Shown: positions 1,737-32,691 of the stretch, in pieces | Layout of the letters: every line of letters starts with the position of its first letter | Numbering within the stretch: the first letter of the stretch is position 1 | Source: Ilumatobacteraceae bacterium | GTDB lineage: Bacteria > Actinomycetota > Acidimicrobiia > Acidimicrobiales > Ilumatobacteraceae | Length of the DNA stretch: 35,453 nt | Direction: 5' to 3' | NCBI GenBank assembly: GCA_044376595.1 | Contig: JBILKS010000001.1 | Span: 1-35,453, forward strand | Notes under the pieces: generated by a model | The model's database searches: none | Seen by the model: the letters and a program-made list of their open reading frames with translations, nothing else | Told to the model about the DNA's origin: nothing | Position numbers and translations under genes: made by a program

Positions 1737-3680
1737 TCAGTCTTCGGCGTGCTCTGCAGCCTTGTGCTGCAACTCGGTCACCACACTGGCATCGGCGAGG
1801 GTGGTGGTGTCCCCCAGATTGCGACCCTCAGCCACGTCCCGCAACAGGCGCCGCATGATCTTTCCGCTGCGTGTCTTCGGAAGATCGGGAGTGAAGTAAA
1901 CGGTCTTGGGTTTGGCGATGGCGCCGATTTCTTTTGCCACGTGATTGCGGAGATCGGCTTCGTTCGCCTCCGCCCCGCCACGCAACGTGACATAGGCAAT
2001 GATCGCCTGACCGGTGGTGGCATCGTTCGCCCCCACCACTGCTGCTTCGGCAACGCTGGGATGCGACACCAACGCCGATTCCACCTCGGTCGTGGAGATG
2101 CGGTGACCCGACACGTTCATCACGTCGTCAACACGACCCAGCAACCAGAGGTAACCGTCGTCGTCGAGCTTTGCGCCGTCGCCGGCGAAGTAACGACCGG
2201 GAAAACGGCTCCAGTACGTTTCGCGATAACGCTCGGGGTCACCCCAGATTCCCCGCAACATTCCGGGCCATGGATGCGTCAACGTGAGATAGCCGCCGCC
2301 ATGTGTGACCACTGCACCGTTCTCGTCGACCACTTCGGCTCCGACACCGGGAATCGGGAAGGTGGCGGATCCGGGTTTTGTGGTGGTGGCGCCGGGCAGC
2401 GGACTGATCATGATTCCACCCGTTTCGGTTTGCCACCACGTATCGACGATCGGACACTGCGACCGTCCGATGTGTTCGTGGTACCACATCCACGCTTCAG
2501 GGTTGATCGGCTCTCCCACACTTCCGATCACCCGCAGCGATGACAGATCGTGCTTGGCCGGCTCTTGATCGCCCCACTTCATGAACGTTCGAATGGCAGT
2601 TGGCGCGGTGTAGAAGATGGTCACCTTGTACTTCTCGATGATGCTCCACAAACGATCATTCCCCGGGAAGTTGGGAACACCCTCGTAGATCACCTGCGTG
2701 GCGCCGTTGGCCAACGGTCCGTAGACGATGTACGAATGACCGGTGACCCAACCGACATCTGCGGTGCACCAATACACGTCGGTCTCTGGATGGAGATCGA
2801 AGACATACTTGTGTGTGTACGCCACATGGGTCAGATAGCCACCCGTGGTGTGCATGATGCCCTTGGGTCTGCCGGTTGTGCCGCTGGTGTACAAGAGAAA
2901 CAACAACTGCTCGGAGTCCATCGGCTCGGCCGGACACACGTCATCGGCTTGCGCCATGAGCTCGTGATACCAGTGATCCCGCCCGTCGACCATGTTGATG
3001 TCGTTGCCACCGCGCCGCACCACCACCACGTGTTCGATCGAATGCGTGTTGGCCACTGCTTCGTCGGCTTGGGGTTTGAGTGCAAACACTTCACCGCGAC
3101 GATGGCCACCATCGGCGGTGATCAACACCTTTGCCTCGGCATCGTTGATGCGATCTGCAAGCGCCTGCGAACTGAAGCCACCGAACACCACTGAGTGCAC
3201 CGCTCCGATGCGGGCGCAGGCGAGCATCGCCACCACGGCTTCGGGAATCATCGGGAGATAGATGTTGACACGGTCACCTTTGGCGACACCCAGGTTCTTC
3301 AGAGCATTCGAGAAACGCTGCACTTCGGCAAGCAAGTCGGCGTAGGTGATGGTGCGCTGGTCGCCCGGTTCACCCTCCCAATGGATGGCCACCTTGTCTC
3401 CCCTGCCGGCCTCGACGTGACGATCCAGACAGTTGTGGGCAACATTGAGTTGACCACCGACGAACCAGCGACTGAACGGCAGATTCCATTCGCACACGGT
3501 GTCCCACGGCGACGACCACGACACCAATTCATCGGCTTGACGGGCCCAGAACGCTTCATAATCAACAGCGGCCTCGTCGTAGAGGTGCGTCCCGACAACG
3601 AGCGCATGACGCTTGAAATCTGCAGAGGGCGGAAAGGTGCGTTGCTCGAGAAGAAGATCTGAGATCGTGTCGTCGGACAT
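1737..3680 (-). CDS. acs: Acetyl-CoA synthetase (AMP-forming)
   Basis: 647 aa from the ATG at 3680 ([19 protein letters not shown]...). Signatures present: [11 protein letters not shown] (AMP-binding motif), WWQTETGG, and a C-terminal [14 protein letters not shown]. The 845-aa track ORF is an upstream run-on. Confidence 0.95.
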
Positions 3681-3776
3681 GGCATCACCATAGTTCCACC
3701 AATTCGATGCCCGTCCATGACGATTGTCGGCTGTCTCGTGCTTCACACCTGCAAGTCGACGGAGTACATTTGGTCC
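3681..3776. promoter_or_regulatory. Divergent intergenic region between acs and the TetR gene; presumed promoters and operator
   Basis: 96-bp spacer between divergent starts. Only weak inverted repeats are visible (ggcatc at 3681..3686 and its inverted copy gatgcc 19 nt downstream; gtcgac). No confident -10/-35 call. Confidence 0.3.
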
Positions 3777-4565
3777 ATGCCAAAGGCAGCATCGAAGCGC
3801 GTATCGAAGAAGTTGTCCGGAGCCAAGACACCTCCCGGAAGCACGACACAGAAGAAAACACAGACCAAGACACAGACCAAGACACAGACGAAGCCGCGCA
3901 AGAAGTCGTCTCCTGGCCGTACCTCCAGGAACGTCGTCAATATCGACGGTCGTGATCGGCGTCCTTGGGCACTCGCCAGCAAGGAACGGCTCCTCGAAGC
4001 CGCAACCGAAGAAATTGCTGCAGTTGGATTCGAACGGGCGCGCCTCGCAGAAATCGCCCAACGTGCCGACATGACCCCCGGGTCGGTGTACACATGGTTC
4101 GCCAACAAAGAAGAGCTCTTCCGGGCGGCCCTTGAATCCGCCTTGGCCGCTCAGTTGCACAGCAACATCACGTTTCTCGAAAGCGCAAACCTCGACTCGT
4201 CGGCATGGATGATGAAGCTTGCGCTGACCGTTCCGCGCAATGCGGGCGATTCGGGGCCCACTTCCGCACAGCAACTCTTGGTCGAGGCGTACTACGCGTC
4301 ATGGCGTGATCCATCTGCACGGGAAATGCTCGAACCGCGCATCCACGAGCACTATGCGATGTACCGCAAGATCGTCGCAGACGCCCAAGCCGAATCCTCC
4401 ATAGACAAGGATCTCGACACGCATCTTCTTGCAACTCTGCTTCTCGCAATACCGCTCGGAATGGCATTGGCCAACATGGCTGGCCTTGACCGTCCCGACG
4501 ACGCAGCGTGGATCGAAGTGGCGGGCCGCTTCGACAAGGCAATGCGTCCCGTCAAGAAGCGTTGA
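3777..4565 (+). CDS. TetR/AcrR-family transcriptional regulator with a lysine-rich N-terminal extension
   Basis: Helix-turn-helix region [45 protein letters not shown] is the classic TetR N-domain. It is preceded by about 60 basic residues including [16 protein letters not shown]. The start at ATG 3777 (GGAG about 12 nt upstream) is preferred over 3717. Confidence 0.8.
3846..3893. repeat. Four tandem 12-bp units encoding (TQ-K/T-K) repeats inside the TetR N-terminal tail
   Basis: Units are acacagaagaaa / acacagaccaag / acacagaccaag / acacagacgaag. Confidence 0.85.
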
Positions 4566-5604
4566 CGGCGTCGACCTTCCAGGTCAGGACGTCGAACGAA
4601 CCCAAGCCATCGGGGTCGACCAGCGCTTCGGCTTCACTCACGCGGGATCGCATTTTCATGGCCGCCACATCGGGTCGTGCAGCAGCAGCCTCCCAAGCCC
4701 GCTTGCCTTCCTCGACGAGTTCGTCGATACCCCACAGTTGGAGAAACTGCCGCTGGGTGCGGACGTTGTGAGGTTCCCTCACCACCGCAAGTTGATCGAT
4801 CATCACCTGCGTCGTGATGTCTTGTGCTCCGGGATTCGCCAAGTAATGGCCGCCGCGTTCGTGACCGACATAGGTACGCAGCCACTGGCGCCACGGATGT
4901 GCAGCCGCCATCGCCGTGAGCGGCCAGCAGTAATCGATAGCCACCACGTAGCCCCGTTCGAGAGTGTCGAGGGCAGTGGACAACCACTCTTGTGCCCCCC
5001 TCTGCAGGGGAAGACGGGACCCGTGTTGTGCCGTGGTCGGAAAGAACGACGGCAGCGAGTCCGACGTGGAAGGTCGCAACACTTCGGTGCAACGGTCGTC
5101 TTCGGCAGTCACCCATGCTTCACGCCACCCATGATCGAAGACCATCAGGTCGAACACGAGATTGTCGAGCAGTTCATTGGCAAGCACGACGCCGGTGAAC
5201 CGACCATCTGGCATCTCGGCAAGCGATTCGACCCACTCGGGGTGTTTGGCTCGTTGGGCTGCTGAAATCTCCACCGCGACATATCGCCACGAAGTTGCAC
5301 AGCGGGGCTGCGCTGCCGCGATCGTTCTGGCCAAGGTTCCGGGCCCTGCACCTGCTTCGATCACCGTGAAGTCGGCGGGTTGGCCGAGTTCGTCCCACCA
5401 CGCATCGAGTGCACGTGCCACGACTGCACCGAACAAGGGGCCCACCTCCGGAGAGGTGAGAAAGTCTCCACGACGCCCCGCCGAGCCGTGCGATGCATAG
5501 AAGCCGTTTTCTCCGTAGAGCGCGAGCTCCATGAAGCGGCGAAAGGGAACACTTCCACCTTCGGCACGAATGGCCGCGAGGATGTGATCAGCCGCCGACG
5601 GCAC
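4552..5604 (-). CDS. SAM-dependent methyltransferase, MidA / NDUFAF7 family (DUF185)
   Basis: Family hallmarks: ILAAIRAEGGSVPFRRFMELALYGENGFYAS...GRRGDFLTSPEVGPLFG and the SAM-binding motif VIEAGAGPGTLA. There is no in-frame ATG upstream of FMELAL. A GTG at 5604 gives a typical 24-residue lead-in and overlaps the nuoN stop (5588..5590) by 17 nt. The 3' end overlaps the convergent TetR gene by 14 nt. Confidence 0.8.
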   Translation of the reverse strand: MPSAADHILAAIRAEGGSVPFRRFMELALYGENGFYASHGSAGRRGDFLTSPEVGPLFGAVVARALDAWWDELGQPADFTVIEAGAGPGTLARTIAAAQPRCATSWRYVAVEISAAQRAKHPEWVESLAEMPDGRFTGVVLANELLDNLVFDLMVFDHGWREAWVTAEDDRCTEVLRPSTSDSLPSFFPTTAQHGSRLPLQRGAQEWLSTALDTLERGYVVAIDYCWPLTAMAAAHPWRQWLRTYVGHERGGHYLANPGAQDITTQVMIDQLAVVREPHNVRTQRQFLQLWGIDELVEEGKRAWEAAAARPDVAAMKMRSRVSEAEALVDPDGLGSFDVLTWKVDAVNAS

Positions 5605-7114
5605 CGGAAATGGCGGTGCTCGCGAAAGTGGCGAGATCACCGAAATGCAATGCCACACCCGGCAGCACGCCAAGCGCCAACGTGGCGAGGCCGGTAATGC
5701 CGAGCGCCAACACCAATGGTGCGGGTGTGTTGATCGGAGCGGTGTCGCCGTCGGGCACCGGACGCATCCAGATTTCACGCATGACGTTGCCGTAGTAACC
5801 GAATGCGATCACCGAGTTCACGGCACCCACCACCGCAATGGCGTATCCCCAGCCGGTACCGGCATCGAGCACTGCCTGGAATGCGGCAAACTTGCCGATC
5901 CAACCACCAAGCGGAGGAATACCAGCGAGCGAACCGAGGAAGATGGTCATCAGCGTGGCCAGGCCCGGCGCATAACTGAAGAGTCCGCCGAAAGAACTGA
6001 TTTCACCGCTGCGGGTCTTGCGGGACACCGAAAGGATGATGGCGAACATGCCCAGGCTGGTTGCCGCGTACACGATGAGATACGTGACGACCGACCGCAA
6101 CACCGCGGCCGATGCATCACCCTCTGCCGCAACGGCAAGCGGCATCAGAATGAAGCCGCCCTGACTGATCGAGGAGTAGGCCAACATGCGAACGATGTTC
6201 GTTTGGCGCAGAGCAACCACATTTCCCACCGTCATGGTGAGAACGGCGAGTACCCAGATGAGCGGCTGCCACACGTCGGAAGCCGAAGGCACTGCCACGT
6301 ACAACACCGTGACCAACGCAACGAAACCGGCGGCCTTCGATGCCACCGAAAGGAATGCGGTGACGGGAGTGGGAGCACCCTGATAGGTGTCGGGTGCCCA
6401 GGTGTGGAAGGGAACCGCCGACACCTTGAACGCAAAACCCACGACGATGAACACCACGGCGAGGATGCGCACAGCAGTGAGGTCACCGGTGATCTCGCTG
6501 GCAAGGCCCGAGAGAAGGGTGGAGTTGGTCACGCCGTACAACAACGACATGCCGTAGAGCATCACTGCCGATGCAAAAACGCCGAGAAGGAAGTACTTCA
6601 CACCGGCTTCGTTGCTCTTCAGGTCTCGCTTACGCCAGGCGGCAAGCATGTAGGCCGGAATCGAGAGGAACTCGAGGGCAACGAACATGGAGATCAGATC
6701 GCGACTCGATGTCATCATCACCATGCCGGTGATGCTGGTGAGCATGAGCACCCAGTACTCACCCTTGTAGTAGTCGCCCTCTTCGATATAGGTGGTGGAC
6801 AAGAGAACCACGACGTAACCGACGAGAAGGAAGAGACCCTTCATGATCAAACTGAAGTCGTCGATGACGTAACGGCCGTCGAACATCGACCGCACACCGG
6901 CATCATCGAGTGCGAGTGTCAGAACCGGAATGAATGCTCCGAGCAGGGTGAAGCCTGTGAGGCTGGCCAAGAGCCACTTGCTGCGCTCGGCCAGGAAGAG
7001 ATCCGCCAACAAGACGACACAGATGCCGCATGCAAGAACGATCTCCGGGGCGAGGGCGTGGTAGTCGACAATCGGCGCCACCCAGTCGGCCGCTGCAAGA
7101 AGCGAGGACAACAC
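5588..7114 (-). CDS. nuoN: NADH-quinone oxidoreductase subunit N (cluster 1, the 11-gene cluster)
   Basis: 508-aa polytopic antiporter-like protein with VPFHTWAPDTYQGAPTPVTAF. GTG start at 7114 with GGAGG 8 nt upstream. Paralog of 18163..19674. Confidence 0.9.
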   Translation of the reverse strand: MLSSLLAAADWVAPIVDYHALAPEIVLACGICVVLLADLFLAERSKWLLASLTGFTLLGAFIPVLTLALDDAGVRSMFDGRYVIDDFSLIMKGLFLLVGYVVVLLSTTYIEEGDYYKGEYWVLMLTSITGMVMMTSSRDLISMFVALEFLSIPAYMLAAWRKRDLKSNEAGVKYFLLGVFASAVMLYGMSLLYGVTNSTLLSGLASEITGDLTAVRILAVVFIVVGFAFKVSAVPFHTWAPDTYQGAPTPVTAFLSVASKAAGFVALVTVLYVAVPSASDVWQPLIWVLAVLTMTVGNVVALRQTNIVRMLAYSSISQGGFILMPLAVAAEGDASAAVLRSVVTYLIVYAATSLGMFAIILSVSRKTRSGEISSFGGLFSYAPGLATLMTIFLGSLAGIPPLGGWIGKFAAFQAVLDAGTGWGYAIAVVGAVNSVIAFGYYGNVMREIWMRPVPDGDTAPINTPAPLVLALGITGLATLALGVLPGVALHFGDLATFASTAISGAVGG

Positions 7115-7117
7115 GGA

Positions 7118-8713
7118 TCAGCCTCCGATGTTCGTGAGAATCGAGGCAACAGCCGGGTCGATGACCTTGAACAACAAGTTCGGCACGACACCGAAAAGAA
7201 GAATCGCTGCCAAGAGCGGTGTCCAGGCAATCCACTCGAACATCGTGACGTCGTGGATCTCTTCAGTGTCGTGGCCGTGACCGTCACTGTGGCCGTGATC
7301 ATGGCCGTGATCATGGCCGGCACCATGGCCGGCAGCGTGGCCGTCGTTCTTCGGCTCACCGAACGCCGTGCGCTGATAGAGCCACAAGAGATAGGCGGCG
7401 GCAAGCACGGTTCCCATGGCTGCGATCACCATGTACACACGGAAGAGCTCCTCAGAGAGGCCATCGGCCGGGTTGTAGGCCGAAAGGATTGCGGGGAACT
7501 CACCCCAGAACCCGGCTAGTCCGGGCAGACCGAGCGATGCCATGGCACAAAAGCCGAGGATCCAACCCATCTTGGGGATCTGCTTCAACATGCCACTGAG
7601 CTTGGCGATCTCCAAGGTGTGGTAGCGCTCTTTCACGCTTCCGGCAATGAAGAACAACATGCCGGTGATCAGACCGTGAGCAACCATGCCGAACACTGCT
7701 GCGTTGATGCCGAAGGACGTGAGGGTGGAGATTCCCAACATCACAAAGCCCATGTGGGCTACCGATGAAAAAGCGATGAGTCGCTTCATGTCGGTCTGAG
7801 CGAGACAGCCGAGCGCACCGTAAATGATGCCAATGACTGCCAGCAGTCCGATCCACGGCGCCCATTCGATGGCCGCATCGGGAAGAACAGGAATCGCAAT
7901 ACGAACGAACCCGTAGGTGCCCAACTTCAACAAGATGGCGGCGAGGATCACAGAGCCCTGCGTGGGCGCCTGGGTATGGGCGTCGGGCAGCCACGTGTGG
8001 AACGGGAACATCGGCACCTTCACGGCGAAACCGATGAACATGCCCGCAAAGATCCACACCTGGGTGTTCTTGGCAATGGCGCCACCGTTCTCCACCAGAT
8101 ACGGAATCGCAAAGCTCTCGGCACCGGTCTTGAAGAAGAGTGCGAGGAAGGCCACCAGCATGAGAGCTGAACCGAACATCGTGTAGAGGAAGAACTTGAG
8201 CGATGCGTACTGGCGGTTCTCGCCGCCCCACACGCCGATCATGAAGTACATCGGCAACAGCACCAACTCGAAGAACACGAAGAACAGCACCAGATCCTGG
8301 GCGATGAATGTTCCGGCCATACCGGTCTGCAACACGAGCATGAGGATGAAGAACGCCTTCGGATTGCCCGGCGACGGAACATGGTTCCAGCTGTAGATCA
8401 TCACGAGAACCGTGATGACCATCGAGAGGAAGTAGAGCGGCAAACTGATGCCGTCGATTCCGATGTAGTAGGTGCTCTTGATGACCGAGATCCAGTTGGT
8501 CTCCGCCACGAATTGCATGTCTCCAGCACGGTCGTAGTTGAACTGTGTCAGCGTGTACACGCCGACACCGAGTGTTGCCACGGCGGTGATCAGTGCCACT
8601 GCCTTGTTCAACTGCTCTTCCGCTTTGGGGATGAACAGCATCACCAGCACACCGGCTAGCGGTAGGAAGGTGCCGACGCTGAGCACCCAGTTGGCGTCAC
8701 GGAGTTGTTCCAT
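7118..8713 (-). CDS. nuoM: NADH-quinone oxidoreductase subunit M (cluster 1), with a His-rich loop insert
   Basis: 531 aa with FPFHTWLPDAHTQAPTQGSVILA and LKRLIAFSSVAHMGF signatures. GAGGAG SD upstream of the ATG at 8713. Confidence 0.9.
   Translation of the reverse strand: MEQLRDANWVLSVGTFLPLAGVLVMLFIPKAEEQLNKAVALITAVATLGVGVYTLTQFNYDRAGDMQFVAETNWISVIKSTYYIGIDGISLPLYFLSMVITVLVMIYSWNHVPSPGNPKAFFILMLVLQTGMAGTFIAQDLVLFFVFFELVLLPMYFMIGVWGGENRQYASLKFFLYTMFGSALMLVAFLALFFKTGAESFAIPYLVENGGAIAKNTQVWIFAGMFIGFAVKVPMFPFHTWLPDAHTQAPTQGSVILAAILLKLGTYGFVRIAIPVLPDAAIEWAPWIGLLAVIGIIYGALGCLAQTDMKRLIAFSSVAHMGFVMLGISTLTSFGINAAVFGMVAHGLITGMLFFIAGSVKERYHTLEIAKLSGMLKQIPKMGWILGFCAMASLGLPGLAGFWGEFPAILSAYNPADGLSEELFRVYMVIAAMGTVLAAAYLLWLYQRTAFGEPKNDGHAAGHGAGHDHGHDHGHSDGHGHDTEEIHDVTMFEWIAWTPLLAAILLFGVVPNLLFKVIDPAVASILTNIGG
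7250..7348 (-). repeat. Low-complexity coding repeat encoding NDGHAAGHGAGHDHGHDHGHSDGHGHDTEEIHD in NuoM (cluster 1)
   Basis: Roughly 12-nt periodic gtggccgtga(c/t)c / atggccg... units on the plus strand. 10 His in 33 residues. Confidence 0.85.
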
Positions 8714-8726
8714 GCCGAATTGCTCC

Positions 8727-11060
8727 TCAGGTGTTGATGATGATTAGGACGAGACCTGCAACTGCCGCAGCAGCGAAGAGCAGAGCCCCGTATTGGTTGA
8801 CCTTGCCGGACTGCACCGGACGCAGAGCGCCTCCGGTGCCCCGGGCGAGAGTGCCCGATCCGTTGACCGCCCCGTCGACCACACGCTGGTCGACGTTGCG
8901 ATACACCCAGCCGGCCACCTTGCGGGTGACCAGGCCGAAACCGTTGACGATGCCGTCGAGAATGTTCTGGTTGATCCAGTAGGCCGCCTTGGCGATCGGG
9001 TGAGCGATGCCATGAACGATGACCTTTTCATAGAGAGCATCGAGGTAGTACTTGTTGACCAGGAAGGTGTAACCGCCGGCCAGCAATTTGTTCCGCTTGG
9101 TGAGGCCCACGAGCGCACCAGTCTTCTTGGTGTACAACTGAACGCTCACCAGCCAACTGATCACGATTCCGGCGAACACGATGGCCAACGACAGTGCCGC
9201 CTTCGACCACTTGAAGGGTGCGTGCTTCAACTGTGGTGCGTAACACACGCCGGCCTCGGGAGTTTTCTTGCCGCACGGCGAGTCGTACTTGCCCCCAGCC
9301 TGCAACGCCGCCGCAGGCACCACGTACTTCGCATGGCCGGCAGCTCCGTGGTCCATGTCTTCGACGACGACGCCCCGTGGTTCGACCCACTTCTTCATGT
9401 TCTCCCAACGCTCACCGAAAGGCGTTGCGTTGAGCAGACCAGCGCCGATGGCCAGCGTGGCGAGGATCACCAACGGCACCGTGATGAGCGCATTGCTCTC
9501 GTGCGGTCCGTGCGATGCGTGTGCGTCATGACCGTGGTCATCGTGACCGTGGTCATCATGGCCGTGCGCATCATCGCCGTGATCATCATGCTCTTCGTCG
9601 TGATGCTCACCGGCCGCGGCGCCGCGTGGGCTGCCGAAGAAAGTGAGGTACGTCGCGCGGGTCATGTACGCAGCAGTCATGAAGGCGCCGACCAGGCCCA
9701 CGATCATGAACGCGTTGTATCCGGCGTAGCCAACGTTGTCGATGATTTCGTCTTTCGAGAAGAAGCCCGACAGGGGGAACACACCGCACAGCGCAAGAGT
9801 CGAGATGACCCAAGTGACGAAAGTGATCGGCATGAACTTGCGCAGGCCGCCCATGTCCTTCTTCATGTCGAAAGAGTGATGTGAGCCGCTGTGGCTCACC
9901 GAACCGGCGCCGAGGAACAGGCATGCCTTGAAGAACGCGTGGGTAAAGATGTGGAAGACGGCTGGCAGCCACGCTCCGGCGCCCAGGCCCATCATCATGT
10001 AACCCAACTGGCTCACCGTTGAGTACGCGAGGACCTTCTTGATGTCGTTCTGAACGAAAGCCAGGGCCGCAGCAATCACGATAGTGATGCCGCCAATCAG
10101 CGTGATCATGTTCATGCCCGAGCCGTAGATGTTCATGCCCTCGAAAAACACGGGGTAGAGACGAGCCACCAGGAACACGCCTGCCACAACCATGGTGGAC
10201 GAGTGCAGAAGCGAACTGACAGGAGTGGGCCCGGCCATGGCATCGGGCAACCACGTGTGCAAGGGGAACTGGCCGCTCTTGCCGATGCAGGCGATGAACA
10301 ACGCCACTGCGCCCATCGTGATGGCCGTGCTGCTGGGGTTGCCGCTCAGCGCCCACGCCGACAGGCCCCGAATGCTGAAGCCGGACACACCCAGGTGCTC
10401 TTGCGTCCAGGAGTTGGCACTGAAGAACAGAATGCTGGTTCCGACCAAGAGGCCGATGTCGCCGGTACGCGTGGTGAAGAAGGCCTTGAGTGCGGCACGG
10501 CTGTTGGCGCCGTCTTCCCACCAGTGACCGATCAGCATGAACGAGCAGAGGCCCATGATTTCCCAGCCAAGAATCAACTGGATCATGTTGTCGGCGATGA
10601 CCATGTTCATCATGCCGGCCGAGAACAACGTGAGTGACGCGAAGAAGTGCGTGTAGCGACGGTCACCGCGCAGGTACTCGAGCGAATAAATCTGCACGAG
10701 CGACGAGATGAACGCAACCACCACGAGAACCGTCAAGGCAAGACCGTCGATGTGCTGGCCAATGGTGAAGGAGAAACCGCCGCTGTCCCACCATGTCCAC
10801 GACTTGATCACCGGGTCGATGAACTGCTCTTCACCGGCACCGTTGACCCGCTGGATCCACTGATAGCCGGCTCCGCCGGCCATCACCAGCGAGGCAAGCA
10901 TGGAGAGAACGCCGAACTCGCTTCCCTTCATGGGCATCTTCTTCCCGAAGAAGATGATGAGGGCGAATGCAACCGCCGGAACGATGGGAATGATCCAGAC
11001 GTGTTCCAGGAACCAGCCGGATTTCAGGGCCTCAGCGGCCACTTCAGATGCAGCAAACAT
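8727..11060 (-). CDS. nuoL: NADH-quinone oxidoreductase subunit L (cluster 1), unusually long at 777 aa
   Basis: FPLHTWLPDAMAGPTPVSSLLHSSTMVVAGVFL signature. C-terminal lateral-helix region ...NKYYLDALYEKV...VDGAVNG... and a final TM. Two insertions relative to the cluster-2 paralog (636 aa). Confidence 0.9.
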   Translation of the reverse strand: MFAASEVAAEALKSGWFLEHVWIIPIVPAVAFALIIFFGKKMPMKGSEFGVLSMLASLVMAGGAGYQWIQRVNGAGEEQFIDPVIKSWTWWDSGGFSFTIGQHIDGLALTVLVVVAFISSLVQIYSLEYLRGDRRYTHFFASLTLFSAGMMNMVIADNMIQLILGWEIMGLCSFMLIGHWWEDGANSRAALKAFFTTRTGDIGLLVGTSILFFSANSWTQEHLGVSGFSIRGLSAWALSGNPSSTAITMGAVALFIACIGKSGQFPLHTWLPDAMAGPTPVSSLLHSSTMVVAGVFLVARLYPVFFEGMNIYGSGMNMITLIGGITIVIAAALAFVQNDIKKVLAYSTVSQLGYMMMGLGAGAWLPAVFHIFTHAFFKACLFLGAGSVSHSGSHHSFDMKKDMGGLRKFMPITFVTWVISTLALCGVFPLSGFFSKDEIIDNVGYAGYNAFMIVGLVGAFMTAAYMTRATYLTFFGSPRGAAAGEHHDEEHDDHGDDAHGHDDHGHDDHGHDAHASHGPHESNALITVPLVILATLAIGAGLLNATPFGERWENMKKWVEPRGVVVEDMDHGAAGHAKYVVPAAALQAGGKYDSPCGKKTPEAGVCYAPQLKHAPFKWSKAALSLAIVFAGIVISWLVSVQLYTKKTGALVGLTKRNKLLAGGYTFLVNKYYLDALYEKVIVHGIAHPIAKAAYWINQNILDGIVNGFGLVTRKVAGWVYRNVDQRVVDGAVNGSGTLARGTGGALRPVQSGKVNQYGALLFAAAAVAGLVLIIINT
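9495..9611 (-). repeat. Low-complexity coding repeat encoding GEHHDEEHDDHGDDAHGHDDHGHDDHGHDAHASHGPHES in NuoL (cluster 1)
   Basis: Repeated gtcatgaccgtg / gtcatcgtgaccgtg / gtcatcatggccgtg units on the plus strand. 13 His and 11 Asp in 39 residues. Confidence 0.85.
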
Positions 11061-11062
11061 CG

Positions 11063-11362
11063 TTAACCCTTCATCTCCGACAGTTCGTCAAGCGCAATCG
11101 AACGACGATTGCGGTAGACGAGGAGCACCAACGCCAGACCCACGCCCACTTCCGCAGCGGCCACGGCGATGATGTACAACGCAAAAACATGCCCATCGAC
11201 GCTGCCGTTGCGCAGCGCAAAAGCGAGAAGGTTGATGTTGACCGAGTTCAAGATGAGCTCGATCGACATGAGAACCATCACGGCGTTGCGACGGGCGATG
11301 ACTCCATAGACACCGATGCAGAACAACACGGCACCGAGGAGGAGGAACTGGTTCACCAACAT
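11063..11362 (-). CDS. nuoK: NADH-quinone oxidoreductase subunit K (cluster 1)
   Basis: 99 aa, 3 TM, with SIELILNSVNINLLAF and IAVAAAEVGVGLALV motifs. Confidence 0.9.
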   Translation of the reverse strand: MLVNQFLLLGAVLFCIGVYGVIARRNAVMVLMSIELILNSVNINLLAFALRNGSVDGHVFALYIIAVAAAEVGVGLALVLLVYRNRRSIALDELSEMKG

Positions 11363-11365
11363 GTC

Positions 11366-11860
11366 TCAGTCCTTCCTTGCCAGAACGATGGCTCCGATGA
11401 CGGCAACCAAGAGAACGAATGACAGTGCCCAGAACGGCAACAGGTACGGGCCGAAGATCTCGTCGGAAATCTGCTGGGTGTTCACGACGGCCGCATCGGT
11501 GGGCAGCTCTTCGTCACCAAAACCCGAGATCAAGGCAATGACCATGACGGTCAACAACAGGCCGGCGGCCGGAAGACCGAGGTACCACGTGGAGTTGTTC
11601 AGTTCCTTTTCTTGGCCCAACTGCGCGCGGGTGAGCATGGTTCCGAAGAGGAACAACACCATCACGGCTCCGACATAGACGAGGATCTGGGTGATCGCCA
11701 CGAACTCGGCGGCGAGGATGATGTACTGCGCCGCGGCGCCCGTGAGCACCAACACCAACCACAGTGCGGCGTGCACCACGTTCTTCACGGTGACCACGCG
11801 CACGGCACCAAAGACCATGATGAGAGCAACGATCCCGAAGGCGATGTTCTGGGCAACCAT
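11366..11860 (-). CDS. nuoJ: NADH-quinone oxidoreductase subunit J (cluster 1)
   Basis: 164 aa from the ATG at 11860 ([23 protein letters not shown]...). ILVYVGAVMVLFLF motif. The ATG shares one base with the nuoI TAA (TAATG). The upstream part of the 263-aa track ORF overlaps nuoI and is rejected. Confidence 0.85.
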   Translation of the reverse strand: MVAQNIAFGIVALIMVFGAVRVVTVKNVVHAALWLVLVLTGAAAQYIILAAEFVAITQILVYVGAVMVLFLFGTMLTRAQLGQEKELNNSTWYLGLPAAGLLLTVMVIALISGFGDEELPTDAAVVNTQQISDEIFGPYLLPFWALSFVLLVAVIGAIVLARKD

Positions 11861-12351
11861 TACTTCTTGCCCTTCTTCTCTGCACCGGCTTCGAGCTCGG
11901 GGGCTTCGGGCACCGTCTCCATCCACTCGCCCAACTTGGCTTTGTCGTGAAGAAGATCGGCAATGCGCGGTTCGGAGTATTCGTATTCGGGGCTCCAGAA
12001 CAGCGCGTCGAACGGGCACACTTCGACGCAGATTCCGCAATACATGCAGAGTGCGTAGTCGATGTCGAATCGATCGAGTTTGTTGACTTGGCGCGGCTTG
12101 CCTCCGGCGCGGCGGGGCGGTGCCAGTTCCTTGTGTCCCTCGATGTAGATGCACCAATCAGGACACGAACGCGCACAGAGCATGCACGACGTGCAGTTTC
12201 CCTCGTGGAGAGCGATGACACCGCGCGCACGAATCGGCGGTGCTTCTTTTTCGTGGGGGTATTGAACGGTGTTGGCACCCTTTGTGATGGTTTCCACCAT
12301 CGTGTTGAGGGTGACACCGAGACCCTTGAAGAGACCGGGAACCTTCGCCAT
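11860..12351 (-). CDS. nuoI: NADH-quinone oxidoreductase subunit I (cluster 1), 2x[4Fe-4S] ferredoxin-type
   Basis: From the ATG at 12351 ([15 protein letters not shown]...). Contains [12 protein letters not shown] and [16 protein letters not shown] overlap with the nuoH stop. Confidence 0.9.
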
Positions 12352-13403
12352 CAGAACGCCACCTTCAGAACAGCCGTCACCATGATGTTGACGAGCGAGA
12401 CGGGGATCAGGAACTTCCACGCGAAGCGCTGGAGTTGGTCTTCACGGAAACGGGGGAAGCTGAAACGCACCCACATGCTGAGGAACACCAGCAACATCAT
12501 CTTCGTGAACATGATCAGCGGGCCGACCACATTCATCCAGTTGTCGATGTCGCCGATGGAGTCCCATCCGAACCATGCAAACGGAACTCCCCAACCGCCC
12601 AGGAACAACACCGATGCGATGAGAGCGAAAACTCCGGCCGTGGCAAACTCGGCGATGAAGAAGATGAGGAATCGGAAACCCGAGTACTCGGTCATGTAGC
12701 CCGACACCAGTTCCGATTCCGCGATGGGCATGTCGAACGGTGTCTGGGTGAGTTCGGCCTGTACCGCGATCATGAAGACCGCGAAACCAACGAACTGAGT
12801 GAGGATGTAGGGATTGCCCAGACCGTTCCAGCCGAACATCTCGCCGGCATTCTGCGCAACGACAATCTGCTGGAGGTTCATGGTTCCGGCCTGGATCACC
12901 ACGCCGACAACTGCAAGAACCATGGGCAACTCGTAGGCGATCAGCTGACCGGCTGCGCGCAAACCACCGAGCAACGAGTACTTGTTGGCACTGGCCCAAC
13001 CCGCAATCAAGATGCCGAGCACCGAGACCGACGAGACTGCCAACGCATAGAACACACCGGCCTCGAAGTCGGTGAACCACGCGTCGGGCCCGAAGGGCAC
13101 GACCGCCACCAGGAGGAACGTGCTGGTGAGAACGACAAGTGGTGCGATCTTGAAGATGAACTTGTCGGCACGCTCCGGGTAGAGGTCTTCTTTCTGAAGC
13201 CACTTGCCGACTTCGGCAAACAACTGCATCGATCCGTATGGGCCGGCTTCCATCGGGCCGAGGCGACTCTGCATGAACGACATCATCTTGAAGAGGAAGA
13301 CGTACACGATGGTTCCCGCGGGCAGGAGAACGGCAACGATGCCACCCAGCACGCGGAAAAGTGACTGAGCCCAATAGGGCATGCTTGCGAGTAACGCGAT
13401 CAT
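12351..13403 (-). CDS. nuoH: NADH-quinone oxidoreductase subunit H (cluster 1)
   Basis: 350 aa polytopic with [45 protein letters not shown] and RFREDQL motifs. ATGA overlap with the nuoD stop. Confidence 0.9.
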
Positions 13404-14602
13404 CAGCGGTCAATGTCTCCGAGAATGAAGTACAGCGAAGCCAGAATGGTGATGATGTCGGGCACGTACACGCCCTTCAGCAACCACGGCACGATGGAAA
13501 TGTTGTTGAAACTGGCCGAACGGATCTTGACGCGGAAGGGGCCGAGATCGCCCTTCGAGACCACGTAGTAACCCATCTCGCCGAGAGGATTTTCTGTTGC
13601 CACCCAGGCTTCGCCCTCGGGCACCTTGATGATGCGCGGCACCTTGGTCATGACAGGCCCCGACGGAATCGAGTCGAGAAGTCGCTCAACGATGTACGTG
13701 GACTCGCGAGTCTCCTGGAGACGCACCCAACAACGCGCATACGAGTCGCCGTCGAGGTGCGTCCACACCTTCCAGTCGACCTTGTCCCATGCCATCGGCA
13801 GTTTTTGATCGCGACGGAGATCCCAGTCGACGCCGCTGGCACGCAGGTTGGCTCCGGACATTCCGTACTGCAGCGCAATGTCGCGAGGGATCACACCGAT
13901 ACCGCGTGTTCGTGACTCGAAGATCTCGTTGCCGAACAACAGTCCTTCGATTTCGTCGCAGAACTTGCGCATCTTCTTCATCACGGCGCGCGTCTCGTCG
14001 ATCCAACCGGCGGGCAGATCGTCCTTCAGTCCGCCAATGCGGTCGAAGTTCGGGTGGAAGCGACCACCCGTGGCGCTTTCGATGAGGTTGAGAACGTATT
14101 CGCGATCGCGGAATGCGAAGAAGACCGGTGTGACTGCTCCCAGCTGCACGCCGAGGTCACCGAGGAACAACGACACGTTTGCGATGCGCGAAAGCTCGAA
14201 GAGGATGGTGCGAATCCACTGCGCACGGGGCGGGGCTTCGATCTCCATCAGTTGCTCTGCGGCAAGGATGAAGGGAACCTCGTTGGCGAAGCTTCCCAGC
14301 CAGTCGATGCGGTTGACCAAGGCCGTCACCTGCGGGAAAGTGCGCACTTCCGTGAGCTTTTCGTATCCACGGTGCATGTAACCGGCCGAAGGCTCGGCCC
14401 AGATCACTTGCTCGCCGTCGAGACGCGCAATGATCCGCAGTGTGCCGTGCGTGGCCGGATGCTGCGGACCGATGTTGAGCGTCATTCCCTCGGTTTCGAG
14501 TTCCACGTTGACGCGGGCATCAGCGGCCTGCGATGCGATGTAGGCCAACTGTTGGCGATCACTCTGCGGGCTGTTCTGCCTGCCGCCGTCGAGCATTGTC
14601 AT
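13403..14602 (-). CDS. nuoD: NADH-quinone oxidoreductase subunit D (cluster 1), 49-kDa subunit homolog
   Basis: 399 aa with MTLNIGPQHPATHGTLRII, HRGYEKL and a C-terminal LGDIDR. No RxCGxC or DPCxxC Ni-Fe ligand motifs. It is followed directly by nuoH, so nuoE/F/G are absent. Confidence 0.9.
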   Translation of the reverse strand: MTMLDGGRQNSPQSDRQQLAYIASQAADARVNVELETEGMTLNIGPQHPATHGTLRIIARLDGEQVIWAEPSAGYMHRGYEKLTEVRTFPQVTALVNRIDWLGSFANEVPFILAAEQLMEIEAPPRAQWIRTILFELSRIANVSLFLGDLGVQLGAVTPVFFAFRDREYVLNLIESATGGRFHPNFDRIGGLKDDLPAGWIDETRAVMKKMRKFCDEIEGLLFGNEIFESRTRGIGVIPRDIALQYGMSGANLRASGVDWDLRRDQKLPMAWDKVDWKVWTHLDGDSYARCWVRLQETRESTYIVERLLDSIPSGPVMTKVPRIIKVPEGEAWVATENPLGEMGYYVVSKGDLGPFRVKIRSASFNNISIVPWLLKGVYVPDIITILASLYFILGDIDR

Positions 14603-15204
14603 TCTGATGCTCCTTCGCCCTCATCGTCGCCACCAGGCAACGGTTCTACATCGACGATGCCCGGCCATGGCTTGACCATGCGTGCGAGCAACGGGAAATC
14701 CTTTCGCAACGGGTAGCCCTCGAAGTCGGAGGGAAGATACATGTTGCGAAGATCGGGGTGGCCGGCGAAGGTGATGCCGAACATTTCGTGGGCCTCACGT
14801 TCGTGCCAGTTGGCTCCGGCAAAAACACCGGTCCACGAATCCACCGTCCAGGTGTCTTCGGGAACGTCGGCTTTCAAGGTGATTCCTTGGTGGGTGCGAT
14901 GGTTGACCAAACGGGCAAAAACCTGAACCCGAGTTGCACCGCCTGCGTAGCCCTGACGAATAGTCATGTCGATGGGGGCTTTTTCCACGGTGGGGTCTTC
15001 TTCGCCCTTCCCGTACGGAGAGGGCATCCAATCGATGGCCGAAAGGAACGAGAAATAGTCGAAGCCGAGTTTGTCGCGCAGCGCAACGGCGGCATCGCGC
15101 CAGGCATCGGTGCGAACACGCACCCACGGATCTTGGCCGGGCTTTTCGAAGGTCTCTTCGACGAGATCTCCGAGTACAGCGGTGATGTCAGCGAGCGACG
15201 ACAA
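14599..15204 (-). CDS. nuoC: NADH-quinone oxidoreductase subunit C (cluster 1); start codon uncertain
   Basis: [38 protein letters not shown] signature. No in-frame ATG in a plausible position. A TTG at 15204 (AAGGG 8 nt upstream) overlaps the nuoB 3' end by 17 nt. In-frame GTGs further upstream are alternatives. Confidence 0.75.
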
Positions 15205-15751
15205 CTGGTTCGCCCTTTCGCTCGGCTTGTTGTGCCGCGTCGGCACCTTGCGACATGGCGACGTAACCCTCACCGCGCCAACGTGCCCCCATGTCTTCGT
15301 TCTTGATGCGCTGTTGCAACAAGACGATGCCCTCAAGCAGAGCCTCGGGCCGAGGTGGGCACCCGGGCACGTACACATCCACGGGAATGATCTGGTCGAC
15401 ACCCTTGGTGACGGAGTAGCTGTCCCAATACGGACCGCCACAGTTTGCGCAGCTTCCCATGGAGATCACGTACTTCGGTTCGGGCATCTGCTCGTAGAGG
15501 CGCTTGATAGCAGGAGCCATCTTGTCTGTCACTGTTCCGGAAATGACGACGAGGTCAGCCTGACGGGGACTGGCCGGCAACGGAATCACGCCGAGGCGCA
15601 TCACGTCGTAGCGAGGAGAACCGAATGCCGCACCCATTTCGATGGCGCAACAGGCCAATCCCCACTGATACACCCACAAGCTGTACGAGCGTCCAAGATT
15701 GAAAAGTGAAGTCAGCGGCTTGGGCAACCGACCACGATCTACGAGTCCCAT
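15188..15751 (-). CDS. nuoB: NADH-quinone oxidoreductase subunit B (cluster 1), N2 cluster-binding
   Basis: 187 aa with [21 protein letters not shown] and [11 protein letters not shown]. It carries a hydrophilic C-terminal extension of about 35 aa. Confidence 0.9.
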
Positions 15752-15812
15752 AAATCTTTCTCTCTCGACCTTTTCTCTGCGTCTTCTCTACGACCCACAC
15801 GGATGTGCGGGG
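15752..15812 (-). other. Unusually long, purine-rich spacer between nuoA and nuoB (cluster 1)
   Basis: Minus-strand reading: gggtgtagccccgcacatccgtgtgggtcgtagagaagacgcagagaaaaggtcgagagagaaagattt, then ATG. Every other junction in both nuo clusters is at most 13 nt or overlapping. Confidence 0.5.
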
Positions 15813-16178
15813 CTACACCCAACGCAGGACGCGCTTGCGCCATGCATAGACAAGGCCGAGCAACAGCACGGCCACGAATATTCCCATTTCAACGAGACCA
15901 AAAGTCCCGTAACGCTCGAGCTGTGTGGCCCACGGGAAGAGGAACACCGCTTCGACATCGAACACCACGAACAACAGGGCAAACACGTAATAGCGAATCT
16001 GGCTCTGCGACCAGCCCTCGCCCACCGGATCCACGCCACTTTCGTAGGCCATCGACTTCTCGCGCGATGGCTTGACCGGACGCACGAGAGAGGCCACCCA
16101 CAAAAGGAGACCGGCGAGGAGTAATGCTGCGAGGCCGAACCAGACAACCGTCAGGTATGACCGTAAGAAGGGGGACAT
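15813..16178 (-). CDS. nuoA: NADH-quinone oxidoreductase subunit A (cluster 1)
   Basis: 121 aa from the ATG at 16178 (MSPFLRSYLTVVWFGLAALL...). YESGVDPVG...YYVFALLFVVFDVEAVFLFPWA motif. GAGGG SD 3 nt upstream. Confidence 0.85.
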   Translation of the reverse strand: MSPFLRSYLTVVWFGLAALLLAGLLLWVASLVRPVKPSREKSMAYESGVDPVGEGWSQSQIRYYVFALLFVVFDVEAVFLFPWATQLERYGTFGLVEMGIFVAVLLLGLVYAWRKRVLRWV

Positions 16179-16218: not shown

Positions 16219-16902
16219 TCAAGTCGCGTGTTCGAAGAACCAATCCACCAGCGTGGCTGCGTGCGCGGCCGATGTGTGGGCGCGCTTTTCAGTCTCGGCG
16301 CACAACTCCTGGGGCGAGATTCCGACCTTGTGAAGTTCGTCGGCACCCGGCCCCGACGACCAGCGTTCGATGATCTGTGGGGTCACTTCAGGATGGAACT
16401 GCACCCCGAAACTGCGACCAAGACGGAACACCTGGACCCCCACGGGACTTGTTGCCAAGATCTCGGCCTCTTCTGGGGGAAGGCAACGGTCGTAATGCCA
16501 CTGCAACCACACGGCATCGTCCACAGCAGGAAGTGTGACCTGCGTCACAGTCCAATCGATGGAAAACCACCCGATCTCTGGTTTTTCGGCCCTTTTCACC
16601 TCCCCGCCCAGCGCATGGGCGAGAATCTGACCGCCAAAACAGATGCCGAACACGGGGATCCCCGCCTGGTGGGCAGCCCGCAAAAGGGCGGCCTCGGCCT
16701 CCACCAGGTGTGCGATGTCGGGCCAATACACCGACCAATCCGATCCGAGAGGCACCACCACAGCAACATCGGAGCTGAGTTGTGGCCACTCGAGGGCGTC
16801 CTCGCGGGCCCATTGCTCGCAGACGAAGCCACGCTCGCGCAACAACCGCCCAACGACTCCCCCGTCGTTGTCACCCCGGTTGGCAATCAGCACTGCGCGC
16901 AC
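16219..16902 (-). CDS. Class I glutamine amidotransferase (GuaA-like GATase1 domain protein)
   Basis: Nucleophile elbow GICFGGQ and the His/Glu pair in VQFHPE. Start taken as the GTG at 16902 (VRAVLIANRG...). The track ORF uses a TTG at 16938, which would overlap the divergent ilvA start. The stop lies 40 nt upstream of nuoA (cluster 1). Confidence 0.75.
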   Translation of the reverse strand: MRAVLIANRGDNDGGVVGRLLRERGFVCEQWAREDALEWPQLSSDVAVVVPLGSDWSVYWPDIAHLVEAEAALLRAAHQAGIPVFGICFGGQILAHALGGEVKRAEKPEIGWFSIDWTVTQVTLPAVDDAVWLQWHYDRCLPPEEAEILATSPVGVQVFRLGRSFGVQFHPEVTPQIIERWSSGPGADELHKVGISPQELCAETEKRAHTSAAHAATLVDWFFEHAT

Positions 16903-16922
16903 AGGGGTACCGTAGGTCACAC

Positions 16923-18144: not shown

Positions 18145-18164
18145 GGCCCGCCTTCGGGCGGGTC
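18145..18164. terminator. GC-rich hairpin between the convergent ilvA and nuoN (cluster 2) genes
   Basis: ggcccgcc-ttcg-ggcgggtc: an 8-bp stem (one G-U pair) with a TTCG loop. It overlaps the nuoN stop codon. No U-tract on either side, so function is uncertain. Confidence 0.4.
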
Positions 18165-23170: not shown

Positions 23171-23175
23171 TGCAG

Positions 23176-30253: not shown

Positions 30254-31596
30254 CGGTCCACCTCGCCAAGCACCGGGTCCACGGAGGAAATCACCGCAAC
30301 GGCGTCGGCCACAAGACCGTTGCGCATCATGTGCGGCAGACACTGAACGTTGACGAACGACGGTGCACGCATGTGAATGCGGTACGGCTTTGGTGAACCG
30401 TCACTGACGATGTAGCACCCGATCTCGCCGCGTGGACTCTCGATACCCACGTACACCTCGCCTTCGGGCACCTTGAATCCCTCGGTGAAGATCTTGAAGT
30501 GGTGGATCAAGGCCTCCATCGACTCATCGATGCGAGCGCGTGGCGGCGGTGTGACCTTCTTGTCCTGGATGCGATAGTCGCCCGACGGCATGCGGTCGAG
30601 AATCTGACGAACGATCTTCATCGACTCACGGATCTCGTTGAGGCGAATCGCGTAGCGATCGAAGGCGTCGCCATAGGAACCGACGATGACGTCAAACTCC
30701 ATCTCTTCGTAGCGGAGATACGGCATGTCACGACGCAAATCCCACGGCACTCCGGTGGAGCGCAGAATCGGACCCGTGGCACCGAGCGCCGCGGCCTCTT
30801 GAGCCGTGATGACACCGACACCCTGCAGGCGCTCGCGCCAGATGGGCTGATCTGTCATCAACACGTCGTACTCGGCGAGGCGGGCGGGGAGACGATCGAG
30901 GATGTCGAGAACATCGTCTCGCCATCCGGCGGGAAGATCGGCTGCCAGACCGCCGGGCCGGATGAAGTTGTGATTCATCCGCAAGCCGGTGACCTTCTGG
31001 AAGAAGCGCAGAACTTCTTCTCGTTCACGCCAGCCGTAGATCATCATCGACACCGCACCGATGTCCATGCCGTTGGTGGCGAGGAACAAGAGGTGGCTCG
31101 ACATGCGATTCAGCTCGGAGAGCAACATCCGCATCCACACCGCGCGCTCAGGAATGTCGTTGTCGATACCCAACAACTTTTCCACCGCCATGGAGAACAC
31201 GAGTTCGTTGTTCAAGGGTGACAGATAGTCCATGCGAGTGACGTTGGTGCCACCCTGCATGTAGGTGAGATCCTCACCGGTCTTTTCCATCCCGGTGTGC
31301 AGGTAGCCGATGATCGGCTTGCAACGCAGAACTCGTTCACCCTGCAACTCCAACATCAGGCGCAAAACTCCGTGCGTGCTGGGATGTTGCGGTCCCATGT
31401 TGATGATCATCGTCTGATCTTCTGCGACTTCAGCGTCGTTGACGTCGTGACCCAGAGCCGCAGCCTCGGTCTCGCTGAGTCGCAGCACGGCTCCGACTTC
31501 GCGCATGACTTCCTTGGCAGTGAGTTCGCTGCGTGAGCGCATCTCTTGATTGCCCTCGCCGGTGGCCTGTGGCGTTGCGGTGATGAGATCGGTCAT
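30250..31596 (-). CDS. nuoD: NADH-quinone oxidoreductase subunit D (cluster 2)
   Basis: 448 aa with MIINMGPQHPSTHGVLRLMLEL, HTGMEK and a C-terminal SVDPVLGEVDR. Confidence 0.9.
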   Translation of the reverse strand: MTDLITATPQATGEGNQEMRSRSELTAKEVMREVGAVLRLSETEAAALGHDVNDAEVAEDQTMIINMGPQHPSTHGVLRLMLELQGERVLRCKPIIGYLHTGMEKTGEDLTYMQGGTNVTRMDYLSPLNNELVFSMAVEKLLGIDNDIPERAVWMRMLLSELNRMSSHLLFLATNGMDIGAVSMMIYGWREREEVLRFFQKVTGLRMNHNFIRPGGLAADLPAGWRDDVLDILDRLPARLAEYDVLMTDQPIWRERLQGVGVITAQEAAALGATGPILRSTGVPWDLRRDMPYLRYEEMEFDVIVGSYGDAFDRYAIRLNEIRESMKIVRQILDRMPSGDYRIQDKKVTPPPRARIDESMEALIHHFKIFTEGFKVPEGEVYVGIESPRGEIGCYIVSDGSPKPYRIHMRAPSFVNVQCLPHMMRNGLVADAVAVISSVDPVLGEVDR

Positions 31597-32102: not shown

Positions 32103-32103
32103 G

Positions 32104-32691
32104 TCAGCGGGCTCCGAGGATGACGGGGGCCGACACGGCACCCGCCGGGATTTCGGTGACATGAATGTTGGCACCTGCGCCTGTTTCGCTGCGCCTGCGC
32201 ATGATCTCGCCGTTTTCGATCAACTGGTGCAAGGTCTCGATTGCATGAATCAACGTCTCGGGCGTGGGGGGACATCCCGGTGCATACACATCCACGGGAA
32301 CCACCTGATCGACACCCTGGACGATGGCGTAGTTGTTGAACATGCCGCCACTCGATGCACACACGCCCATGGAGATGACCCACTTGGGTTCCATCATTTG
32401 GTCGTACACCTGGCGGAGCACCGGAGCCATTTTCTGGCTCACGCGACCGGCAACGATCATGATGTCTGCCTGACGCGGCGAAGCGCGAAACACCTCCATG
32501 CCGAAACGGCCGATGTCGTAGTGTGCCGCGCCCGTTGCCATCATTTCGATGGCACAACACGCAAGACCGAACGAGGCCGGCCACGAGGAACGGGCACGTG
32601 ACCAGTTCACCAGATCTTCGATACGACCCGTGAGGAAGTTGTGTTGGAGTCCCCCGAGTCCGTCGTCGAGCACGTTTCCCACCAGTCCCAT
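32104..32691 (-). CDS. nuoB: NADH-quinone oxidoreductase subunit B (cluster 2)
   Basis: 195 aa with [22 protein letters not shown] and [11 protein letters not shown]. Confidence 0.9.

Follow-up and report, generated by a model that had tools for sequence, protein, structure and literature searches.

A MidA-like methyltransferase gene overlapping nuoN of an 11-gene nuo cluster in an Ilumatobacteraceae bacterium, and a candidate acceptor arginine in the NuoD of the same cluster

When a methyltransferase gene overlaps the last gene of one of two neighboring complex I clusters, which of the two enzymes, if either, would its product modify? This question is raised by positions 1 to 35,453 of contig JBILKS010000001.1 from an Ilumatobacteraceae bacterium (assembly GCA_044376595.1), a stretch of 35,453 nucleotides that is called the window here. 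It contains two nuo clusters within 30 kb, both on the reverse strand (-), an 11-gene cluster at 5588-16178 and a 14-gene cluster at about 18163-33179, whose genes carry the suffixes 1 and 2, respectively. A MidA-like gene, called midA from here on, overlaps the 3' end of nuoN1. The function of NDUFAF7/MidA has been established in human cells and in Dictyostelium; for the bacterial proteins, it has been deduced solely in silico (PMC9006661, PMC12455994), the modification found in Paracoccus aside (PMC3750175). The answer that we favor, with slightly more confidence than doubt, is that the MidA-like protein would be a maturation factor dedicated to the enzyme that lacks the NADH module (N-module), dimethylating Arg78 of NuoD1, a prediction as regards both the target and the type of methylation.

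Family membership and the candidate acceptor arginine

The MidA-like open reading frame (ORF) belongs securely to the MidA/NDUFAF7 family of S-adenosylmethionine (SAM)-dependent methyltransferases. The features of the gene and of its junction with nuoN1 are, with alignments made to Protein Data Bank (PDB) entries where indicated:

4552..5604 (-), midA-like gene: 350 aa, GTG start, TGA stop; PF02636, COG1565, DUF185
5428..5469 (-), family hallmark loop GDFLTSPEVGPLFG, aa 46-59, from the translation and PDB alignment
5329..5364 (-), SAM-binding motif I VIEAGAGPGTLA, aa 81-92, from the translation and alignment
5588..5604 (-), nuoN1/midA overlap of 17 nt, nuoN1 3' end (...GAVGG, stop) over midA 5' end (MPSAAD...), read directly
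5588..7114 (-), nuoN1, final structural gene in the 11-gene cluster (NCBIfam TIGR01770 NuoN, E 2.4e-113)

A sequence-only reading of this DNA had proposed the family from three hallmark sequences, and all of them are found in the translation of 4552-5604 (-): FMELALYGENGFY at aa 24-36, GDFLTSPEVGPLFG at aa 46-59, and VIEAGAGPGTLA at aa 81-92. The profile search that it called for agrees, since Pfam PF02636 (Methyltransf_28) matches the protein with 104.3 bits (E 9.7e-30; gathering score, 23.3 bits) over profile positions 2-237 of 249; no NCBIfam model matches it at E <= 0.001. A PDB sequence search points to the same family, returning the COG1565 proteins 4f3n (E 8e-17) and 1zkd (E 4e-15) and the Dictyostelium MidA 5ztz (E 9e-10), this last match spanning residues 27-103 only. 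Also, the predicted fold is in agreement: the AlphaFold2 model, obtained with 40 homologues as input (pLDDT 86.7, pTM 0.87), finds MidA-family structures at all of ranks 1-6 in a Foldseek comparison against the PDB (4f3n, 4g67, 5ztz, 5zu0, and 1zkd A/B; TMq 0.72-0.81), with a TM of only 0.38 at rank 7.

The hallmark loop GDFLTSPEVGPLFG pairs with DFVTAPELSPLF in 4f3n and with DFTTSPEISQMF in 1zkd, and the motifs VIEAGAGPG, GDFLTSPEVG, ANELLDNL, IDYC, and QDITT are all intact, being aligned with the same motifs in these two structures. Moreover, DFxTSPE, GxGxG, NELLDN, DY, and QDIT are invariant or nearly so over 32 diverse homologues, down to 39% identity, and residues G85, G87, and G89 of SAM motif I are invariant or nearly invariant in the homologue alignment (A1).

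The residue that the family is known to modify can then be sought in the window. In the 49-kDa subunit of cattle, a symmetric dimethyl-Arg85 lies in the peptide KCDPHIGLLH-R-GTEK (Carroll et al. 2013, PMC3750175), and the methylated Arg of NDUFS2 corresponds to an HRGxE motif (PMC8042128). R65 of Paracoccus denitrificans Nqo4 is dimethylated as well, and in Thermus thermophilus, a Thr stands in place of the methylated Arg (PMC3750175), with Arg83 of Nqo6 (NuoB) filling the space of the absent NuoD arginine (PMC8042128). The corresponding codons of the two clusters are:

14369..14371 (-), NuoD1 Arg78, codon CGT, GYMH-R-GYEKL, predicted methyl acceptor, equivalent to bovine R85 and P. denitrificans R65
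31294..31296 (-), NuoD2 Thr101, codon ACC, GYLH-T-GMEKT, no acceptor Arg, 14-gene cluster (alignment)
15533..15535 (-), NuoB1 Thr73, VISG-T-VTDK, mitochondrial/Escherichia coli-type, at the position of Thermus Nqo6 R83
32443..32445 (-), NuoB2 Arg83, IVAG-R-VSQK, Thermus Nqo6 R83-type (alignment to 2fug_6 and 8e9g_B)

These positions reveal a reciprocal Arg/Thr swap near the iron-sulfur (Fe-S) cluster N2, being R78 in NuoD1 and T73 in NuoB1 for the 11-gene cluster versus T101 in NuoD2 and R83 in NuoB2 for the 14-gene one. Two solutions, the "mitochondrial/Paracoccus" one and the "Thermus/Mycobacterium" one, thus coexist in a single cell. NuoD2 aligns column by column with IGYLHTGIEK of Mycobacterium smegmatis and IGYLHTGFEK of Thermus, and R83 of NuoB2 is like that of Thermus Nqo6 and M. 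smegmatis NuoB. On the other side, T73 of NuoB1 is like that of mitochondrial NDUFS7 (IVAGTLTNK), and the best PDB matches of NuoB1 are the mitochondrial NDUFS7 and the Paracoccus NuoB.

The swap is kept in relatives, with Arg at the NuoD1 site in 41/41 orthologues (40 from midA-linked clusters and one from a distant locus, L090) and the Thr-bearing GYLHTGMEK in all of the 120 best NuoD2 orthologues. One of these (P0271) probably shares a contig of 98,996 nt with the midA-nuo11 locus L001. Since Arg is present in NuoD1 and Thr in NuoD2, the sole possible acceptor of the known MidA reaction is the NuoD of midA's own operon; and with a Thr at the site of NuoD2 and Arg83 supplied by NuoB2, the co-resident 14-subunit complex I would be no substrate.

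The sequence-only reading had located the methylated residue elsewhere, in the context QHPxxHGxLR. This motif does occur in both copies as quoted (QHPATHGTLR in NuoD1 and QHPSTHGVLR in NuoD2), but the HRGxE site is about 30 residues downstream of it, and QHPxxHGxLR was rejected as the methylation context because the bovine dimethyl-Arg maps to HRGxE (PMC3750175); its presence in both proteins thus has no bearing on the question. The specificity for the N-module-less enzyme that had been suggested loses the premise drawn from both NuoD copies and comes out strengthened, as R78 in NuoD1 against T101 in NuoD2 now argues for it.

The nuoN1 junction and its surroundings

The stop codon of nuoN1 (TGA, 5590-5588) and an in-frame GTG of midA (5604-5602) lie on the same strand, the GTG being 14 nt upstream of the stop, which bears out a start placed 17 nt inside the 3' end of nuoN1. 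It had also been called the only plausible start. As worded this is too strong, given that further in-frame GTG/TTG codons exist 5' of it at 5640, 5658, 5673, and 5778, but comparison with relatives settles on 5604. For this comparison, one genome per GTDB species was taken, and the best 80 loci, all from Acidimicrobiia and 53-70% identical, were inspected. GTG followed by (M)PSAAD is found in an identical 17-nt overlap in 42/80 of these species-level loci, several of the 42 having no alternative start codon inside 60 nt, and the N-terminus (M)PSAAD is kept in relatives. The four upstream codons were discarded as starts because they are not conserved in relatives. The ATG at 5532 (residue 25) was rejected too, as it would cut residues aligned in PDB family members, and these align from residue 7 on, which excludes it.

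No Shine-Dalgarno (SD)-like purine run was found at -25..-1 of the midA GTG, in contrast to most other nuo genes in the window, where GGAGG-like runs precede the start. The overlap with nuoN1 together with the missing SD suggests that midA is probably translated by termination-reinitiation after nuoN, with 5588..5604 as the presumed site of the coupling. In this case, midA would close the nuo11 operon as its twelfth cistron, provided that it is co-transcribed, as the gene order predicts. Its place as the last gene of the nuo unit, which had been proposed earlier, agrees with it being last on the strand, with the overlap, and with the linkage being conserved in relatives. A promoter and terminator consensus scan over 3600-7300 gave counts equal to the shuffle expectation, actinobacterial promoters being poorly covered by such a scan. 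Across 4400-7200, RNA reads from three metatranscriptomes of a related study contributed nothing beyond one 53-nt fragment, of ~90% identity, located in nuoN; the sequence occurs in DNA metagenomes only, from lake water and the subsurface. The lake-water metagenomes, along with relatives as named by their sources, place the organism among freshwater Ilumatobacteraceae.

For the linkage itself, two of the 80 loci carry too little upstream DNA, leaving 78 informative ones. In all 78, nuoN of an 11-type cluster is upstream of midA on the same strand, with midA following immediately in 69/78 and after a gap of ~100-600 nt, or an ambiguous one, in 5/78. Beyond these loci, the breadth rests on nine contig look-ups. 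Representatives of seven other 50%-identity subfamily clusters (37-51% identical) are nuo-linked in 7/7 cases: in six, a nuoN-like gene directly precedes midA, and in the seventh, midA lies 3.8 kb downstream of nuoJ-N. The genes downstream of midA in these distant loci are mutually unrelated: a helix-turn-helix (HTH) gene; TetR and MscL; DUF418; TetR on the opposite strand; GerE/MalT. The survey of midA gene neighborhoods recommended by the sequence-only reading therefore returned nuo linkage in every informative species locus and every distant representative. A contrast set of 80 alpha-proteobacterial 1zkd-like MidA loci from metagenomes (652 kb in total) was devoid of nuo genes; this set is one clade, 72-78% identical to 1zkd, so the lack of nuo linkage holds for that clade only.

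Some loci of the survey have peculiarities of their own. In a few marine Ilumatobacter-like genomes, inserts that break the nuoN-midA overlap lie at about 9165-9960 in L045 and L074, at 2738-10001 in L048, and at 422-10001 in L073. In L091 (GCA_965190345.1; 43% identity; 6171-12490), nuoN and midA are parted by a 569-aa ORF and by two DUF2510 genes on the opposite strand, and midA is followed by an ORF of 195 aa and by an M48 peptidase of HtpX type, an arrangement that resembles the NDUFAF7-htpX order of Actinomarina (bioRxiv 10.1101/2021.02.01.429150). Six Ilumatobacteraceae-type loci (L006, L010, L013, L024, L032, and L057) come from metagenome-assembled genome records titled "Bifidobacterium", which are probably mislabelled.

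On the downstream side, the nuo-midA unit of the window ends at a convergent gene:

3717..4565 (+), TetR-family regulator gene, convergent to midA (Pfam TetR_N, E 2.2e-12)

The overlap of its 3' end with the midA stop is 14 nt long, and an N-terminal repeat is encoded at 3846-3905. This gene is an insertion confined to the closest relatives (L001, L006-L009, and L022); in most other Ilumatobacteraceae, acs comes directly after midA, so the operon may extend into acs there.

On the upstream side, the 11-gene cluster is contiguous in the order nuoA,B,C,D,H,I,J,K,L,M,N, each gene with the expected Pfam or NCBIfam match, and no nuoE, nuoF, or nuoG appears among the Pfam/NCBIfam matches across the cluster. 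By this gene content, it is predicted to encode an 11-subunit complex I-like enzyme (Nuo11) without N-module. Besides nuoN1, its genes, assigned by Pfam, are:

7118-8713 (-), nuoM1
8727-11060 (-), nuoL1
11063-11362 (-), nuoK1
11366-11860 (-), nuoJ1
11860-12351 (-), nuoI1
12351-13403 (-), nuoH1
13403-14602 (-), nuoD1
14599-about 15240/15273 (-), nuoC1, start uncertain
15188-15751 (-), nuoB1
15813-16178 (-), nuoA1

nuoD1 is directly followed by nuoH1, the two abutting at 13403, and relatives keep the same order. Low-complexity inserts rich in His and Asp are present in NuoL1 (EHHDEEHDDHGDDAHGHDDHGHDDHGHDAHASHGPHE, aa 485-521; window 9498-9608) and in NuoM1 (GHAAGHGAGHDHGHDHGHSDGHGHD, aa 458-482; window 7268-7342), and these could possibly be metal- or proton-binding loops. 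Between the nuo clusters, there is a class-I glutamine amidotransferase-like gene at 16219-16938 (-) and a threonine dehydratase-like gene with PALP and ACT at 16782-18143 (+); as only these two part the clusters, the paralogous complexes are near neighbors on the chromosome. Upstream of the 14-gene cluster, also on the reverse strand, a membrane protein (33184-34008) and a dihaem c-type cytochrome (34008-35069; CAGCH and CARCH) are encoded.

A proposed dedicated maturation role and its alternatives

On the reading favored here, transcription of the nuo11 operon would run on into midA as the final cistron, and ribosomes ending on nuoN would reinitiate at the midA GTG, giving a small amount of the MidA-like enzyme each time that the complex is made. 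This enzyme would then dimethylate Arg78 of NuoD1, in the HRGxE motif beside cluster N2, before or during the docking of NuoD1 onto NuoB1 and the cluster, thereby acting as a maturation or assembly factor of the 11-subunit enzyme only. In mitochondria, NDUFAF7 removal disrupts complex I assembly, and the roles proposed for the dimethyl-Arg adjacent to N2 are assembly, a "key and lock" with NDUFS7, and tuning of the N2 potential (PMC9006661, PMC8042128).

Several observations weigh against this proposal. In four of the 78 informative loci, all marine and Ilumatobacter-like, 0.76-9.5 kb of other genes separate nuoN from midA. Also, all nuo-linked examples are probably from one class, Acidimicrobiia, so that a vertically inherited gene order explains part of the conservation, and acs is another gene that often follows midA on the same strand within the family. 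The identity to characterized or crystallized family members is just 18-26%, which makes the substrate specificity an extrapolation. R249 of E. coli NuoCD is unmodified (PMC3750175), and an Arg at the site need not mean methylation; moreover, a study on Wolbachia proposed that a bacterial MidA serves DNA methylation instead (PMC12455994). Finally, a transcript across the nuoN1-midA junction is a prediction from gene order, and Arg methylation in an actinobacterium a prediction by analogy.

A wider version of the proposal, which we put forward only tentatively, is that methylation of the NuoD/49-kDa Arg would not have been invented in alpha-proteobacteria or mitochondria but would go back further, to a maturation step encoded in the operon of the "ancestral" 11-subunit enzyme. 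The translationally coupled MidA of Acidimicrobiia would then modify only the paralogue with a NuoD Arg beside cluster N2, the co-resident 14-subunit enzyme using a NuoB Arg in its place.

Among the competing explanations, the one that survives best, although we consider it rather unlikely, is that the protein is an active MidA-fold methyltransferase with some other substrate (another protein or residue, a nucleic acid, or a small molecule) and that its position after nuoN reflects inherited gene order. The restriction of nuo-linked examples seemingly to one class, in which further syntenic neighbors (acs, yajQ, GNAT) are shared, would be in line with this, and so would a bacterial function that is predicted by in silico work only, with the DNA-related role proposed for the Wolbachia protein (PMC12455994), and the unmethylated Arg of E. 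coli. Also, NuoD is the presumed substrate of alpha-proteobacterial MidA even though no nuo linkage was seen in the 1zkd-like clade, so function and linkage can come apart. Nonetheless, the nuoN linkage lasts down to 37-40% identity though the downstream genes turn over (HTH, TetR, DUF418, GerE/MalT). Moreover, the exact dual-coding overlap is retained in 42 species, the acceptor Arg is confined to the NuoD paralogue of the same operon (41/41 versus 0/120 orthologues), and the sole biochemically established substrate of the family is that same Arg (PMC3750175, PMC9006661).

A second alternative, to which we give little credit, keeps the partner and drops the chemistry: the MidA-like protein would bind NuoD1 while the Q-module is assembled and would serve mainly as a chaperone or assembly factor without catalysis, with methyl transfer either absent or dispensable. 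NDUFAF7, which counts among the assembly factors, does bind directly to NDUFS2 (PMC9006661), and the complex I of E. coli assembles with an unmethylated Arg (PMC3750175). However, SAM motif I and every family-invariant residue are intact and strongly conserved, and a Dictyostelium knockout was not rescued by a methyltransferase-deficient mutant (PMC9006661). That the enzyme serves both complexes, or the 14-subunit one, is hardly credible, because the proximity of the clusters on one strand and the QHPxxHGxLR shared by both NuoD copies are outweighed by that motif not being the methylation site (PMC3750175), by the Thr at the acceptor position of NuoD2 and 120/120 orthologues, and by the compensating Thermus-type Arg83 of NuoB2.

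If the dedicated maturation role is true, the bacterium would offer a natural within-cell experiment on the effect of the dimethyl-Arg on the N2 potential, assembly, and electron-donor choice; two enzymes that differ exactly at the Arg/Thr position, with midA tied to one of them, make a clean genetic and biochemical system in which to probe its function. Moreover, a modification to which a proteobacterial origin has been ascribed would then occur in monoderm Actinobacteria and in the N-module-less class of enzymes as well. As for annotation, "SAM-dependent methyltransferase" genes of this kind would be better named nuo-associated MidA, and HRGxE, not QHPxxHGxLR, is the site to inspect in NuoD.

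Comparison with known systems

The MidA-like protein adds a new and distant member to a known family, and its genomic context has been mentioned once before, in passing. That mention concerns Candidatus Actinomarina, in which an NDUFAF7 gene (K18164/PF02636) lies downstream of an 11-subunit nuo operon beside a heliorhodopsin (bioRxiv 10.1101/2021.02.01.429150). The likeness is close, comprising the same family, the position after nuoN, the class Acidimicrobiia, and a 14-subunit cluster nearby; the genes downstream of midA differ, being htpX and pspE there versus TetR and acs here. The preprint gives it as a passing annotation in a rhodopsin paper, an "accessory assembly component", without the start overlap, the acceptor Arg, the NuoD/NuoB differences, or the taxonomic breadth, and a full-text literature search on the family identifiers returned no other report of a nuo-linked midA. 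Accordingly, what appears new is the class-wide conserved coupling to nuoN, the overlapping midA start without SD, and the reciprocal NuoD/NuoB Arg-Thr swap that picks out, as the target, a single one of the two complex I enzymes in the cell. Nothing mechanistically unprecedented is demonstrated for the midA-nuo locus.

A SAM-methyltransferase-like gene inside a bacterial nuo operon is also known from Rhodobacter capsulatus, urf7, with a function that is predicted only (PMC9036352). It was rejected as a same-family precedent, since its product, of 257 aa, belongs to the unrelated family Pfam Methyltransf_24.

The characterized reference is the mitochondrial complex I assembly factor NDUFAF7/MidA of human and Dictyostelium (5ztz, 5zu0), whose target for symmetric dimethylation is Arg85 of NDUFS2 (mature numbering), in HRGxE. 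The protein of the window resembles it in PF02636, in fold (TMq 0.77-0.78), in the hallmark motifs, and in the presumed substrate residue, kept in the NuoD1 of its operon. The two differ in that the identity over the structural alignment is 18-19% and the MidA-like protein has no targeting sequence. Moreover, the gene described here lies within, and overlaps, the operon of the presumed substrate complex. Its host is a monoderm actinobacterium, the partner complex has 11 subunits and no NADH module, and the activity of the MidA-like protein is a predicted one.

The COG1565/DUF185 structures of Burkholderia thailandensis (4f3n/4g67) and Rhodopseudomonas palustris (1zkd) are the best matches by both sequence and structure. 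Unlike midA here, the proteobacterial genes of the 1zkd-like clade do not sit beside nuo (0/80 loci). Dimethylation of a NuoD Arg in bacteria was already known from Arg65 of P. denitrificans Nqo4 (PMC3750175). In proteobacteria, however, a single 14-subunit enzyme is the target, whereas here there are two paralogous enzymes to choose between.

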